Source: Alphaproteobacteria bacterium (GTDB lineage: Bacteria; Pseudomonadota; Alphaproteobacteria; UBA7985; JAUIBT01). Taken from it: a DNA stretch of 32,000 bases. The notes below the pieces were generated by a model. It ran no database searches and had not been told where the DNA came from. It was given only the letters and a program-made list of their open reading frames with translations. Location of the stretch: contig JAUIDR010000026.1 in NCBI GenBank assembly GCA_030428565.1, forward strand, positions 12,754 through 44,753, in the 5' to 3' direction. Both the position numbers and the translations under genes were made by a program. Below are positions 1 through 11,875 of the stretch, one piece after another. Position 1 is the first letter of the stretch; each line of letters begins with the position of its first letter.

Positions 1-524
1 ATGCGCGGGGCGTTGAACAAAGCCAGCGGGCGCAGCGTCGAGCCGATAAAATCAATGTCACCGTTGACCAGCTGGTCGTCCATAGTGGCCAGATCGGGCG
101 CATCGAACAGGCGGCTAAAGCTCTTGAGCTTGTCGGCGCTAAAGGCCCCTTCGACATAAATGCCTTCAGAAAAAGCAAAGTGGATGGGGATGGCTAGATC
201 GCTGAGTCCCACCTCAAAATCACAGCCGTGATTGCGGCGCAACTCCTTGAGCTGACGCAGCAAGTAGCCGGCGAAAAGATCGGGGCGGGTGATGGTGGTG
301 GCAAAATCGCCGCTGGTATCGCAAAAGCCGAAGGAGCGCCCATCGTGGTCGTTGAGCGCTTCGGTGATGGCGACCCGAATTGCGGGGTAATAGGCGTGCA
401 CCGGCTGATCGGGCTCGTTGCCCGCCACGAAGGCGTCAAAGGCCTGGCGCAGGCGTTGGGTCTCTTGCGCGTAGAGGTCGATCAAGGCCTCGACGGCGGC
501 TTGGGGACTGGTGTAGGTCTGCAT
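1..524 (-). CDS. amn: AMP nucleosidase, N-terminal ~174 codons (5' part of the gene; continues beyond the window start)
   Basis: The reverse strand is open from ATG (complement of 524-522) to position 1. It is missing from the ORF track because it runs off the edge. My translation is MQTYTSPQAAVEALIDLYAQETQRLRQAFDAF...RSFGFCDTSGDFATTITRPDLFAGYLLRQLKELR...LRPLALFNAPR. From memory this matches the N-terminal domain of E. coli Amn (...YTTTITRPTLFRSYLNEQL... and ...PLSHFDARR...). The catalytic domain lies outside the window. Confidence 0.75.
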   Translation of the reverse strand, partial: MQTYTSPQAAVEALIDLYAQETQRLRQAFDAFVAGNEPDQPVHAYYPAIRVAITEALNDHDGRSFGFCDTSGDFATTITRPDLFAGYLLRQLKELRRNHGCDFEVGLSDLAIPIHFAFSEGIYVEGAFSADKLKSFSRLFDAPDLATMDDQLVNGDIDFIGSTLRPLALFNAPR

Positions 525-592
525 CGCAAAGGCTTACGCCCAAGCGCGTGACAAAATCAAGACAACTCGGTTCGCGGTCACGGACTTTGACC

Positions 593-622
593 TTGACTCT
601 GGCGTGCCGCTTGGCCTATCTA
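593..622 (+). promoter_or_regulatory. Candidate sigma70-type promoter for rplJL (TTGACT-N18-TATCTA)
   Basis: TTGACT at 593-598, an 18-nt spacer, then TATCTA at 617-622, about 320 nt upstream of the rplJ ATG. This is a motif match only. Confidence 0.25.
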
Positions 623-943
623 GCCGCTCTCTTTGTTGGGACGGGCTTCGGCCTGTCCTCGTAAAGCGAACTGTCCAAGACGATTGGGTCGGTGGTCCGG
701 CGGCTTTTTGAGCCAAAGGCGCGCTGTAAATTCCCTTTCTAGACGGAACGCGATTGAGTTTGTCGTTTGTGTCAGACCGCTGCTTGTCAGCGCGGACCCA
801 GGCGCCAACTTTGCTTCCTTTGGACAGTGTTGTGCGGTGTGGCTTTGACCTCAAGTTGGTCAAGGGGCTTGCTTGCGAGCGTCTTGAACGGCCCAAGGCT
901 AGAGCTGCTTCCTCTAACCCTACCTTTTTGAAAGGAGATCCGA

Positions 944-1468
944 ATGGATCGCGCAGAAAAGGAAGCGTTGGTTAAAGAACTTCGCGCGCAGTTTGAGGCG
1001 TCTACATCGGTGGTCGTTGCCCGTCAAAAAGGCATGACCGTTGCTAAGACCCAAGACCTGCGTGGCAAGATTCGCGAGAAGGATTGTTCCTTCCGCGTGG
1101 CGAAAAACCGCCTCGTGCGCATCGCGATCGAAGGAACACCCTTTGAGCCTCTCAGCCCCGTTCTGGAAGGCCCAACGACACTGGCTTTCTCCTCTGACCC
1201 CTCGTCAGCGGCGAAAATTATGGTCGATTACTGCAAGGGCAGCGACAACCTGGAAATCGTAGCAGGCGCCATGGAAGGCGAACTGTTCGATGCTGACGGT
1301 GTTGTTAACATCCTGTCAAAAATGCCTACTCTGGACGAGATCCGCGCCACTCTGGCCGGTCTGCTCAAAGCCCCTGCGTCCAAGATGGCTGGTGTTCTCA
1401 AGGCCCCTGCTCAGAAGGTCGTCGGCGTCATCAAGGCGTACGAAGACAAGCTGGCAGAAAACGCCTGA
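944..1468 (+). CDS. rplJ: 50S ribosomal protein L10
   Basis: 174-aa ORF starting MDRAEKEALVKELRAQFEAS...VAKNRLVRIA. SD GAAAGGAG lies 5-12 nt upstream. It is directly followed by rplL. Confidence 0.96.
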   Translation: MDRAEKEALVKELRAQFEASTSVVVARQKGMTVAKTQDLRGKIREKDCSFRVAKNRLVRIAIEGTPFEPLSPVLEGPTTLAFSSDPSSAAKIMVDYCKGSDNLEIVAGAMEGELFDADGVVNILSKMPTLDEIRATLAGLLKAPASKMAGVLKAPAQKVVGVIKAYEDKLAENA

Positions 1469-1552
1469 TCTTAGATCAACCTTACCCTTATTTTTTCGAC
1501 ATTTCCCTGGGGTGCAAACGGCCCTGGTGGAAGCAAAACCTGGAGAAGACAC

Positions 1553-1945
1553 ATGTCTGATGATGCACTGTTTGATGAACTAGTAGAAAAGCTGTCGGCC
1601 CTGACCGTTAAGCAAGCCGCGGACCTGGCAAAGCGCCTGGAAGACGAGTGGGGCGTTGAAGCTGCCTCTGGTGGCGGCATGATGATGATGGCTGCTGCAC
1701 CTGGTGCAGACGCTGGCGCTGCTGCTGAAGAAAAGACCGAGTTCGACGTGATCTTGGCCTCTGCTGGCGACAAGAAGATCAACGTGATCAAGGAAGTTCG
1801 CGCTATCACTGGCCTGGGCCTGAAAGAAGCCAAGGCACTGGTAGAAGAAGCTCCGAAGCCGGTTAAAGAAGGCGCGTCTAAGGACGAAGCTGAAGAGCTG
1901 AAGAAGAAGCTGGAAGAAGCTGGCGCGACCGTCGAAATCAAGTAA
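1553..1945 (+). CDS. rplL: 50S ribosomal protein L7/L12
   Basis: 130-aa ORF with an N-terminal dimerisation helix ([22 protein letters not shown]), an Ala/Gly/Met hinge, and the conserved C-terminal domain ([24 protein letters not shown]...[11 protein letters not shown]). Confidence 0.97.
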
Positions 1946-2006
1946 GCCTCGGCTTAGTTGAGCGCCGCTTGGCGGCGGCGACATCGCGCGGTTCGACCGC
2001 ATCAAA

Positions 2007-2040
2007 CGGCTGGTCCCGATTGGGGCCGGCCGTTTTTTTT
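2007..2040 (+). terminator. Intrinsic terminator downstream of rplL
   Basis: CGGCTGGTCCC (2007-2017) pairs with GGGGCCGGCCG (2022-2032), giving 11 bp including 2 G-U pairs, with a GATT loop. T8 follows directly at 2033-2040. Confidence 0.8.
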
Positions 2041-2075
2041 GTGCCCTGATGCTGCGGGCCAAATTGGCAGAAAAC

Positions 2076-2104
2076 TTGGCTGTGTTTGAACAGTTTGCTA
2101 AAGT
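2076..2104 (+). promoter_or_regulatory. Candidate promoter for the Cys-rich repeat gene (TTGGCT-N17-TAAAGT)
   Basis: TTGGCT at 2076-2081, a 17-nt spacer, then TAAAGT at 2099-2104. It sits in a visibly more AT-rich stretch between the rplL terminator and ATG 2179. This is a motif match only. Confidence 0.3.
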
Positions 2105-2178
2105 GTAAATCACAAAATTTCGCTTGTCTGTCCCACTGGCCTATTCTGAAATCAGGTCCGTGCAAAAGGAAAGAGATC

Positions 2179-2988
2179 ATGCGGGCGTTCGATCGCGTCT
2201 TGGTTGCTATGTTGCTGTTGTCCAGTCTCTTGGCTTTGGGCACCTTCACGCCCGCGCAATCGCAAGGGCTGAAATTCATCAAGGGTATCGGCGATTCTTG
2301 CGCGGGGCCTTACGACGAATGCACGCCAACGGCCTTCTGCAACGAATATAAAATCTGTCAGCCCAAGTCGGTGCAGACCATTCGCGGCATTGGCCAATAT
2401 TGCGGCGGCCCCAACGATATCTGCCAAGACGGGGCCTTTTGTAACGCCCAACGCGTCTGTCAGCGCCGCGCCAGTGGCGGCAACATTCGCGGCATCGGTG
2501 AGTCCTGTGGCGGCGGCCAAGACCAATGCCAGACCGGCAGTTTTTGTAACGAATACCGTGTCTGTGAGCGGGCAGGGGCCCGTTTGGTCAAGCGCTTGGG
2601 CGAGAGTTGTCGTAGCTCCAACGAAATCTGTGAGCCAGGAACCTACTGCAACGACCAACAAATTTGCGCGCAGCAAACGATCCGAGTTCTGCGCGGTATC
2701 GGCGATTATTGCGGGCGCCCCACCGACGAGTGCGCCTTTGGTAGCTTCTGCAACGCGCAAAAACGCTGCGAGGCTAGCGTCCTAAAAATTATCCGCGGCA
2801 TCGGCCAGTTCTGCGGCGGCCCGAATGATGAATGCGCGCAAGGCAGCTTTTGCAACGATCAACAGCTTTGTGAGAGCAGCGACACCATCAAATTCGTTAA
2901 AGGTGTTGGCGAATCATGCGGCGAACCCAACGAGATTTGCTCGCAAGGGGCTTATTGCAATATCGATTTTATCTGCGAGTCGTACTAG
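2179..2988 (+). CDS. Secreted cysteine-rich tandem-repeat protein of unknown function (269 aa, 28 Cys)
   Basis: The track ORF 2086-2988 opens with a TTG. The internal ATG at 2179 has SD AAAGGAAAGAG at 2165-2175 and yields a classical Sec signal peptide: MRAFDR + VLVAMLLLSSLLALG + TFTPAQSQ, with no lipobox Cys. The mature part consists of seven modules of the form [IVL]-[RK]-G-[IV]-G-x-x-C-x4-[DE]-x-C-x2-G-x-[FY]-C-N-x4-C. This periodicity exists only in this frame. Confidence 0.85.
   Translation: MRAFDRVLVAMLLLSSLLALGTFTPAQSQGLKFIKGIGDSCAGPYDECTPTAFCNEYKICQPKSVQTIRGIGQYCGGPNDICQDGAFCNAQRVCQRRASGGNIRGIGESCGGGQDQCQTGSFCNEYRVCERAGARLVKRLGESCRSSNEICEPGTYCNDQQICAQQTIRVLRGIGDYCGRPTDECAFGSFCNAQKRCEASVLKIIRGIGQFCGGPNDECAQGSFCNDQQLCESSDTIKFVKGVGESCGEPNEICSQGAYCNIDFICESY
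2269..2985 (+). repeat. Seven diverged in-frame tandem coding repeats of 90-111 bp (30-37 aa modules)
   Basis: Module boundaries, checked codon by codon: R1 2269-2379, R2 2380-2484, R3 2485-2586, R4 2587-2688, R5 2689-2790, R6 2791-2895, R7 2896-2985. The DNA copies differ at many synonymous positions (compare R2 attcgcggcattggccaatattgcggcggccccaacgat with R6 atccgcggcatcggccagttctgcggcggcccgaatgat). The duplications are therefore old, not a recent expansion. Confidence 0.85.
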
Positions 2989-3022
2989 TCAGCCGCGAAA
3001 GAGCCAAAAAATCGTTCCACCA

Positions 3023-3056
3023 GGGGTTGCAGCACTTTGCCGCAGACCCCTTTTTT
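3023..3056 (+). terminator. Intrinsic terminator downstream of the Cys-rich repeat gene
   Basis: GGGGT...ACCCC outer stem (3023-3027 / 3046-3050) with inner TGC/GCA pairs. T6 follows at 3051-3056, 35 nt after the stop codon. Confidence 0.65.
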
Positions 3057-3099
3057 AGCGCCTTATGGCCGGTGTTGCCGCTGTTCGAGTGCTTAGGGC

Positions 3100-3128
3100 T
3101 TGTCAAGTCTCTATCCAGCCCCTATACA
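3100..3128 (+). promoter_or_regulatory. Candidate dedicated promoter for rpoBC (TTGTCA-N17-TATACA)
   Basis: TTGTCA at 3100-3105, a 17-nt spacer, then TATACA at 3123-3128, just downstream of the 3023-3056 terminator. This is a motif match only. Confidence 0.3.
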
Positions 3129-3405
3129 AGGCGGCCCGACACGAATGGATGGTGTCGCCGCAACTCCCCTCTCTTCTATTTTCGTGTAGCGCTGGCTTTG
3201 CGCTGCCAATCACTTTGGTGATTTCTTTGACAACACGAGTTTCTTGGTAAGCAGTTAGCTTGTCGGAGTGCGCAGCGACCCCCGATTTTCGGCGCTTGGT
3301 CGACTGCGCTGTTGGCGTTTGTCTCGGTCGCATACCAGACCGACGATAGCCCGAACCGACCCCCTGATTGCCCGCCATCGAGGCTCCCAAATAAATGGTA
3401 GGTCC

Positions 3406-7587
<4,182 letters not shown>

Positions 7588-7708
7588 GTCGCCGCCAAGC
7601 CCGGTACTCCGATCCCCAGCGGGTCGGAGCCACCGGGACGCTCGCCCATATTTAGCGTAGCTGCCAGGCCCGTCCGGCCGCCGCGCCGTCCCCAAAAGGA
7701 GACACCTT

Positions 7709-11875
<4,167 letters not shown>

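Follow-up and report, generated by a model that had tools for sequence, protein, structure and literature searches.

In Escherichia coli, a terminator-like hairpin, or attenuator, lies directly after rplL and sets ribosomal protein expression apart from RNA polymerase expression (PMC4670729). The spacer that holds this attenuator is short, rpoB follows rplL directly, and rpoBC is dependent on read-through. Genes at this junction are nevertheless known from Firmicutes: in Bacillus subtilis the order is rplK rplA rplJ rplL ybxB rpoB rpoC, which places ybxB, a gene neither ribosomal nor for RNA polymerase, exactly between rplL and rpoB (PMC4634966). Here, the same junction is described in an uncultured alphaproteobacterium (assembly GCA_030428565.1, contig JAUIDR010000026.1, positions 12,754-44,753, forward strand), where it carries a 269-codon gene for a predicted exported protein built of cysteine-rich repeats. 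The stretch of 32,000 nucleotides (nt) that was analyzed is referred to as the window. The gene is genuine and occupies the same position in a second species. At a probability of roughly 70%, it is best explained as a lineage-restricted gene lying in the gap that divides what appear to be two distinct transcription units, rather than as an imported and insulated cassette.

The gap between rplL and rpoB measures 1460 nt in the window, as opposed to a median of 211 nt (range 125-478) in 76 other loci from Alphaproteobacteria. These loci derive from a genome scan with RpoB residues 1-400, in which the matches listed are relatives of at most 68% identity and do not include the sister species discussed below. 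The survey rests on the 80 alphaproteobacterial rpoB loci among those matches, and all statements on surveyed loci and spacers refer to them; 76 have rplL upstream of rpoB. None of these 76 spacers encodes a relative of the protein, and a tblastn search of the 80 loci with the protein likewise returned no relative. In contrast, the sole close relative from a search with full-length RpoB, a sister species whose RpoB (P0005) is 96% identical to that of the window (GCA_030428255.1, locus L086), has the order rplJ, rplL, a 270-codon gene without a Pfam match, rpoB, and rpoC. The interruption is real, unusual among Alphaproteobacteria, and specific to a small clade. Both the lineage specificity proposed in an initial annotation, which was made from the DNA letters alone, and the comparison of rplL-rpoB intervals that it recommended come out in this way, with the gene present in two species and missing from 76 other spacers.

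Comparison of the two species establishes the open reading frame (ORF) as a genuine gene whose position is conserved. The window protein and its ortholog share 81% amino acid identity, and all 28 cysteines are invariant. Nonsynonymous and synonymous substitutions per site (pN and pS) amount to 0.113 and 0.715, respectively (pN/pS about 0.16); identity is 88% at the first two codon positions and 50% at the third. The start codon and the Shine-Dalgarno sequence are kept as well. In addition, other sequencing runs yielded five short contigs that encode the identical protein and whose DNA is 99.9-100% identical to the window. The gene is under purifying selection, yet it evolves about four times faster than the surrounding core genes, because its pN of 0.113 compares with about 0.03 in rpoB, rpoC, fusA, rplJ, and rplL.

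The gene is older than the split of the two known species. Its seven internal repeats differ from one another by a pS of 0.73 and a pN of 0.33, and each repeat pairs one-to-one with, and is nearest to, the repeat at the equivalent position of the sister protein. Since synonymous sites between the repeats are saturated, their duplication took place long ago, and the seven-fold array is both old and stable.

The conservation of flanking elements suggests how the locus is organized. After rplL, a 14-bp stem occupies 2004-2035 (11-bp G+C core, 2007-2032) and is followed by eight T residues at 2033-2040. This element, T1, has a predicted folding energy of -29.1 kcal/mol (z = -5.1), and 0 of 200 shuffled sequences were as stable. 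Its counterpart in the sister species is a hairpin plus U7 with a changed stem sequence (-32.8 kcal/mol). Among the other spacers, 26 of the 76 contain a hairpin followed by a T-run, in many cases 45-110 nt after rplL, and T1 is found at 87 nt. Because T1 is kept in the sister species and elements of this kind occur near the same offset in relatives without the gene, T1 would represent the ancestral terminator or attenuator of rplJL and not a part of an imported cassette. It occupies the same position as the E. coli attenuator (PMC4670729).

A promoter-like site, TTGTCA-N17-TATACA, with 9/12 consensus positions matched, precedes rpoB. Its two hexamers are unchanged in the sister species, whereas the spacer is identical at 9 of 17 positions and the upstream flank at 40%; the distance to the rpoB ATG is 277 nt in the window and 268 nt in the sister species. 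This site is probably the rpoBC promoter. The first conserved block of the rpoB leader begins at about the transcription start expected for it, and the leader blocks are 94-97% identical between the two species, compared with 50% at third codon positions of the ORF. The leader folds at -95 kcal/mol (z = -3.1), with predicted long-range stems and a palindrome, AATCAC-TTTG-GTGATT, at about 3210-3225. An Rfam search of 500-3600 gave chance-level matches only, leaving the leader without an Rfam family, and a search for the leader in 85 other loci found it in the sister species only, where the promoter-leader region corresponds to 7704-8000. This leader is about 270 nt long and may act as a regulatory element, specific to the clade, for RNA polymerase synthesis. 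Upstream of rplJ, a second promoter-like site, TTGACT-N18-TATCTA (8 of 12 consensus positions), is kept in the sister species with the same hexamers and spacing, at 321 nt (window) and 318 nt (sister) from the rplJ ATG, and presumably acts as the rplJ promoter.

No comparable conservation is seen around the gene itself. The stretch between T1 and the ORF (2044-2178) aligns with the sister sequence at 32% identical columns, with 45- and 22-nt indels, and a search aimed at alternative sigma factors found the Shine-Dalgarno sequence and a CCCACT at -47/-48 as the only shared upstream elements. RpoH-like and sigma-54-like promoter readings of this region, made by eye, were dropped for wrong spacing. 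The sequence TTGGCT-N17-TAAAGT at 2076-2104 agrees with the consensus at 8/12 positions and falls short of the 9/12 that the scan requires; a promoter scan of 500-3600 returned 0 promoter-like sites, against a mean of 1.1 in shuffled sequences. In the sister species, no candidate of at least 8/12 lies upstream of the ortholog, and the aligned sequence is unrelated to 2076-2104. Downstream of the ORF, the hairpin T2 (-18 kcal/mol, z = -3.3) is not called by a simple terminator scan because of its bulges, and the corresponding site in the sister species is without a U-tract (z = -1.8). The stretch from the ORF to the rpoB promoter-like site (2989-3099) is 40% identical. As a separate observation, a second small terminator-like hairpin, GACGTGGATCGCGTC then CTCATTTTGG, is found at 6598-6620 of the sister locus, inside a 45-nt insertion just past its rplL terminator, and has no counterpart in the window.

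Taken as a whole, the preferred explanation is that rplJ-rplL would form one transcription unit, starting from the conserved promoter-like site upstream of rplJ and ending at T1, and rpoB-rpoC a second one, starting from its own promoter-like site and carrying a leader of about 270 nt that is both conserved and structured. The two units would have become independent in this lineage, and an extra gene could be tolerated in the gap between them. The gene grew, long ago, by tandem duplication of a unit of 34-35 codons. Because no promoter for the gene is conserved, its expression would depend on read-through of T1 or on a weak or non-sigma-70 promoter. The remark of the initial annotation that expression may depend in part on T1 read-through gains in plausibility, since no conserved promoter is visible. 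The features of the locus are compiled in Table 1; the end of rplL at 1945, the hairpin plus U8 that follows it, the ORF at 2179-2988, the second hairpin plus U6, and the rpoB ATG at 3406, with which the sister genome is concordant, all agree with the initial annotation.

Table 1. Coordinates of features at the rplJL-rpoBC locus, numbered from the first nucleotide of the window.
Feature	Position	Strand	Details
Promoter-like TTGACT-N18-TATCTA	593-622	+	Upstream of rplJ; 8/12 consensus positions
rplJ (ribosomal protein L10)	944-1468	+	ORF; sister ortholog matches Pfam Ribosomal_L10; 94% amino acid identity to sister species
rplL (ribosomal protein L7/L12)	1553-1945	+	ORF; 92% identical to sister species
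T1, intrinsic-terminator-like hairpin plus U8	2004-2040	+	Terminator scan; fold
Spacer upstream of ORF, unconstrained	2041-2178	+	Alignment with sister species; holds TTGGCT-N17-TAAAGT and Shine-Dalgarno sequence
Shine-Dalgarno sequence AGGAAAG of ORF	2167-2173	+	Shared with sister species
Orphan cysteine-repeat ORF	2179-2988	+	810 nt, 269 amino acids plus stop codon
Predicted signal peptide	2179-2265	+	Residues 1-29; MRAFDR, hydrophobic core, PAQS/QG; judged by eye from the translation
Seven tandem modules of 34-35 codons	2275-2985	+	Starts 2275, 2377, 2482, 2584, 2686, 2788, 2893; 28 Cys in total
T2, bulged hairpin plus U6	3022-3056	+	Hairpin 3022-3051, T6 3051-3056; terminator-like in this genome only
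Promoter-like TTGTCA-N17-TATACA	3100-3128	+	Before rpoB; 9/12 consensus positions
rpoB leader	3129-3405	+	Conserved blocks 3140-3169, 3199-3283, 3298-3321
rpoB	3406-7587	+	ORF; Pfam RNA_pol_Rpb2 domains in homologs
rpoC	7709-11875	+	ORF

The arrangement differs from both described systems. Whereas rpoBC of E. coli relies on read-through across a short spacer, a conserved promoter-like site and a long leader, recognized here from sequence only, precede rpoB in the window, and about 1 kb of extra DNA is present. The ybxB product is cytoplasmic and methyltransferase-like, and the gene, which is common across Firmicutes, forms part of the transcription unit. In contrast, the gene described here is a predicted exported cysteine-repeat orphan of two species, placed after a strong terminator-like hairpin and before an apparent rpoB promoter. 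The premise of the initial annotation that rplL and rpoB are normally contiguous is overstated in view of ybxB (PMC4634966) and of the closest relatives of the window: among the three next-closest RpoB relatives examined, two are without rplL before rpoB. The relative with 78% RpoB identity has the order ftsH-folP-rpoB, and one with 75% identity has DUF6502-DUF5666-DUF1801 before rpoB; another 75% relative is canonical. In this part of the Alphaproteobacteria, rplL and rpoB have become unlinked on several occasions. Since Firmicutes already provide examples of genes at this junction, the locus does not overturn established knowledge; it is a local oddity that breaks no universal rule, and its product adds a new sequence family to a general kind already known. 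The rearranged regions upstream of rpoBC correspond to 812-3949 of locus L087 and 343-2971 of locus L089. Three of the 80 scanned loci (L037, L059, and L068) have no rplJ or rplL match in the DNA covered upstream of rpoB (about 2.3, 5.0, and 6.0 kb).

The protein begins with the layout of a type I (Sec) signal peptide, which comprises an N-region of positive charge, about 15 residues of hydrophobic core, and a cleavage site with small residues at positions -3 and -1. Judged by eye, the window protein (MRAFDR-VLVAMLLLSSLLALG-TFTPAQS/QG) and its ortholog share this layout. In the ortholog, hydrophobicity and the PAQSQG end are retained and the remainder of the region has diverged (pN 0.23). A lipobox of the type II signal (L-x-x-C) is absent, as the first 40 residues are without cysteine. 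The claim of the initial annotation that a non-ribosomal exported protein is encoded between rplL and rpoB is upheld.

The remainder of the protein consists of seven tandem modules that follow the pattern [IVL][RK]G[IVL]G-x2-C-x6-C-x2-G-x-[FY]-C-N-x4-C, with the fuller consensus [IVL][RK]G[IVL]G-x2-C-G-G-P-x-D-x-C-x2-G-x-[FY]-C-N-x4-C. The distances between cysteines are perfectly regular (7, 6, and 6 residues inside a module and 15-16 between modules), and DNA repeat families with a period of 102-105 nt match the modules. An AlphaFold2 model of a single repeat, with the seven repeats serving as alignment, reached a predicted local distance difference test score (pLDDT) of 89.5 and forms a beta-hairpin over the last two cysteines. 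The structural neighbors of this model are SIBD-1 and N-domains of IGFBP, together with disulfide-hairpin or knottin toxins, at query-normalized TM-scores (TMq) of 0.6-0.7 and E values of at least 0.2.

The single repeat superimposes on these neighbors at a root-mean-square deviation of about 2 Å; for SIBD-1, a spider protein with a single IGFBP domain (PDB 3zxb), the TMq is 0.65-0.69, with 38-44% identity over 32-34 columns. The disulfide-directed beta-hairpin has the consensus CX5-19CX2[G/P]X2CX6-19C. The C-x6-C-x2-G-x2-C spacing of the repeat fits this consensus, but its last loop, of 5 residues, is one short. Knottins have six cysteines, whereas the module has four. Moreover, no PDB chain matches at the sequence level, and the repeat differs from IGFBP-N, SIBD-1, and the toxins in its bacterial host and seven-fold tandem array. 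On the model, the module can be read as a two-disulfide hairpin of generic type, akin to those of IGFBP-N, EGF, and Dickkopf-N, and is filed in no family. The protein would be exported and undergo oxidative folding into seven two-disulfide beta-hairpin modules. With low confidence, it is suggested to be a protease-resistant extracytoplasmic binding or structural protein and not an enzyme.

Searches with the 269-residue protein, likewise recommended in the initial annotation, and with profiles of its repeats placed it in no annotated family and revealed no significant relative. The only matches in Pfam and NCBIfam, UL128 (E = 1.3) and aprA (E = 0.26), are not significant, and the protein stays below the gathering thresholds of Dickkopf_N, EGF, IGFBP, and other curated cysteine-rich families. 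No significant relative was found in the PDB by sequence, with either the protein or the repeat profile, or among 5.8 billion protein clusters searched by word index with the protein. A scan of JGI metagenomes with the protein gave no match, and plasmids, phages, and viral contigs contained none. A profile of the seven repeats retrieved, from 1.84 billion representatives, three weak matches only, all limited to the half-motif C-x2-G-x-F-C-N-x4-C. This half-motif is shared with the bacterial cysteine-rich repeat proteins P0001 and P0003, which have units of the form C-x-D-G-x-F-C-N-G-x-E-x-C. These proteins of 1400-1560 residues, with 10-17 copies of the unit, match 15 of 35 profile positions (E = 1.7e-5 to 7e-4). 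However, they and Dickkopf_N-like modules differ from the module in unit length, cysteine count, and N-terminal half ([IVL]RGIG-x2-C-G-G in the window protein).

A degenerate, hand-made DNA motif of one module also identified 10 single-module look-alikes in unrelated metagenomic cysteine-rich ORFs. Because the imposed motif forces part of the similarity, these look-alikes are no evidence of homology and indicate just how common modules of this type are; they may belong to an unrecognized, widespread small disulfide module of bacteria. Sites of this kind are located at 1868-1942 (minus strand) in L098, where the module reads GIGEECGGSSGTCALGAFCNENWICES, 593-667 in L092, 1302-1376 (minus strand) in L095, 11539-11613 in L090, and 1459-1533 (minus strand) in L091. 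Two look-alike ORFs have sub-threshold scores for Dickkopf_N or DUF7107.

Several points weigh against the preferred explanation or limit its reach. Promoters and terminators, as well as how efficiently they work, are read from the DNA sequence, and the footprints of regulatory sites come from a comparison of two genomes. The promoter-like sites are matches of 8-9 out of 12 positions, none of which is called by a standard scan. On the protein side, the signal peptide is assigned by eye, the AlphaFold2 model of the whole protein, built without an alignment, has a pLDDT of 62 and is too poor for use, and the single-repeat model has no significant structural match (Foldseek E of at least 0.2). 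The assignment of function is a guess. Finally, both the window protein and its ortholog are missing from the protein collections, even though the adjacent RplL of the sister species is present in them and the window protein is found in a contig index. Because the collections miss a known ortholog, and a positive control thus fails, the negative protein searches are weak evidence. The term orphan accordingly denotes a protein with no relative visible by the searches made, and its distribution may be wider.

The least improbable of the alternatives, though unlikely, is that proposed in the initial annotation: a self-contained unit of promoter, gene, and two terminators, acquired horizontally and insulated inside a co-transcribed rplJL-rpoBC operon. 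In this genome the ORF is indeed flanked by two terminator-like hairpins, a promoter-like site of 8/12 lies at 2076-2104, the upstream 140 nt have about 50% G+C, and the gene is missing from the other alphaproteobacteria surveyed. However, the components of such a cassette do not hold together when the sister species is considered. The first terminator belongs to rplL, being kept in the sister species and located at the post-rplL terminator position of relatives without the gene; the proposed promoter has no counterpart there; and T2, which was to provide insulation, loses its U-tract. The AT-rich segment reported at this place holds weakly, over 2001-2300 (G+C 0.495-0.50), and not for the gene as a whole, as the ORF has a G+C content of 0.564 against 0.572 for the window and a G+C content at third codon positions (GC3) of 0.67 against 0.57-0.75 in neighboring genes. 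The composition of the gene is native, and marks of mobility are absent. Flanking repeats are limited to chance matches of at most 13 nt, and the statement that direct repeats and an integrase are lacking is borne out. No integrase, transposase, or tRNA lies next to the ORF, the neighbors being rplJL and rpoBC, with the limit that no ARAGORN search for tRNAs was made. A recent horizontal transfer was dropped in view of the native composition and saturated synonymous divergence, and an origin from a plasmid or phage in view of the lack of a plasmid, phage, or viral match. Any transfer would be ancient, given the saturation of synonymous sites between repeats and species. What survives of the insulated acquired unit is therefore a lineage-specific gene for an exported, non-ribosomal protein; its self-contained promoter-terminator organization and foreign composition do not.

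It is also improbable that the gene was born in place, from a short stretch of relaxed spacer or a small captured fragment that gained a signal peptide and, through seven-fold amplification, became a new protein family. Such an origin would agree with the strictly tandem array of period 102-105 nt, the native composition, the restriction to one small clade, and the lack of a significant homolog in 1.84 billion representatives, Pfam, NCBIfam, and the PDB. However, the last of these points counts for little when databases miss the known ortholog. In addition, the motif G-x-C-x6-C-x2-G-x-[FY]-C-N-x4-C recurs as single modules in unrelated metagenomic cysteine-rich secreted proteins, and the closeness of the module to EGF, Dickkopf-N, and IGFBP-like hairpins is better accommodated by capture of an existing module. 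A more elaborate scenario is similarly doubtful. It would combine separate rplJL and rpoBC units, a quiet gap serving as a nursery, an in-place seven-fold amplification of a 34-codon disulfide hairpin, and T1 read-through that couples secretion to growth rate. If this nursery reading were true, the origin of a new exported protein family could be traced here within a gene string that is among the most conserved of bacteria.

Very unlikely is an ancestral presence of the gene in a larger group, followed by repeated loss, which would make the arrangement in the window a relic. The age of the gene, with its saturated synonymous sites, and the rearranged neighborhoods of related lineages are compatible with such a history, but the absence of the gene from 76 of 76 other spacers, across many families, would call for very many clean losses. 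Finally, a chance open frame in G+C-rich intergenic DNA, for which the lack of a Pfam or NCBIfam match and the absence from large protein collections might speak, was dropped as practically excluded, being refuted by the 28 invariant cysteines, the pN/pS of about 0.16, the conservation of codon positions (88% versus 50%), the conserved start codon and Shine-Dalgarno sequence, and the regular cysteine spacing across seven diverged repeats.

If the preferred explanation, a lineage-restricted gene between two apparently separate units, is right, the rplL-rpoB junction accepts insertions once rpoBC has its own promoter, which fits the broken linkage in neighboring lineages. The gene would then found a sequence-orphan exported family of seven tandem repeats, whose module, confidently predicted as a disulfide-rich hairpin, could be of interest for research on small disulfide-rich scaffolds. 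Likewise, the structured rpoB leader of about 270 nt, without an Rfam family, would be a possible regulator of RNA polymerase synthesis in this clade.

Further observations concern the genes upstream. The RplL of the window is 59-74% identical to the RplL of more than 70 alphaproteobacteria among the matches listed. Its flexible hinge, encoded at 1670-1720, contains a run of four methionines, an unusual linker composition, and the RplL of the sister species is two residues shorter. In the window, rplJ is without secE-nusG-rplK-rplA upstream; a divergent AMP-nucleosidase-like gene (3-524, minus strand) ends about 420 nt before it. In the sister species, about 3.3 kb of extra genes are found between the AMP-nucleosidase-like gene and rplJ (788-5490 of its locus), including two ChaC-family genes, an ORF of 87 amino acids, and a LysR regulator, although rplJ has a leader of about 320 nt in both genomes.

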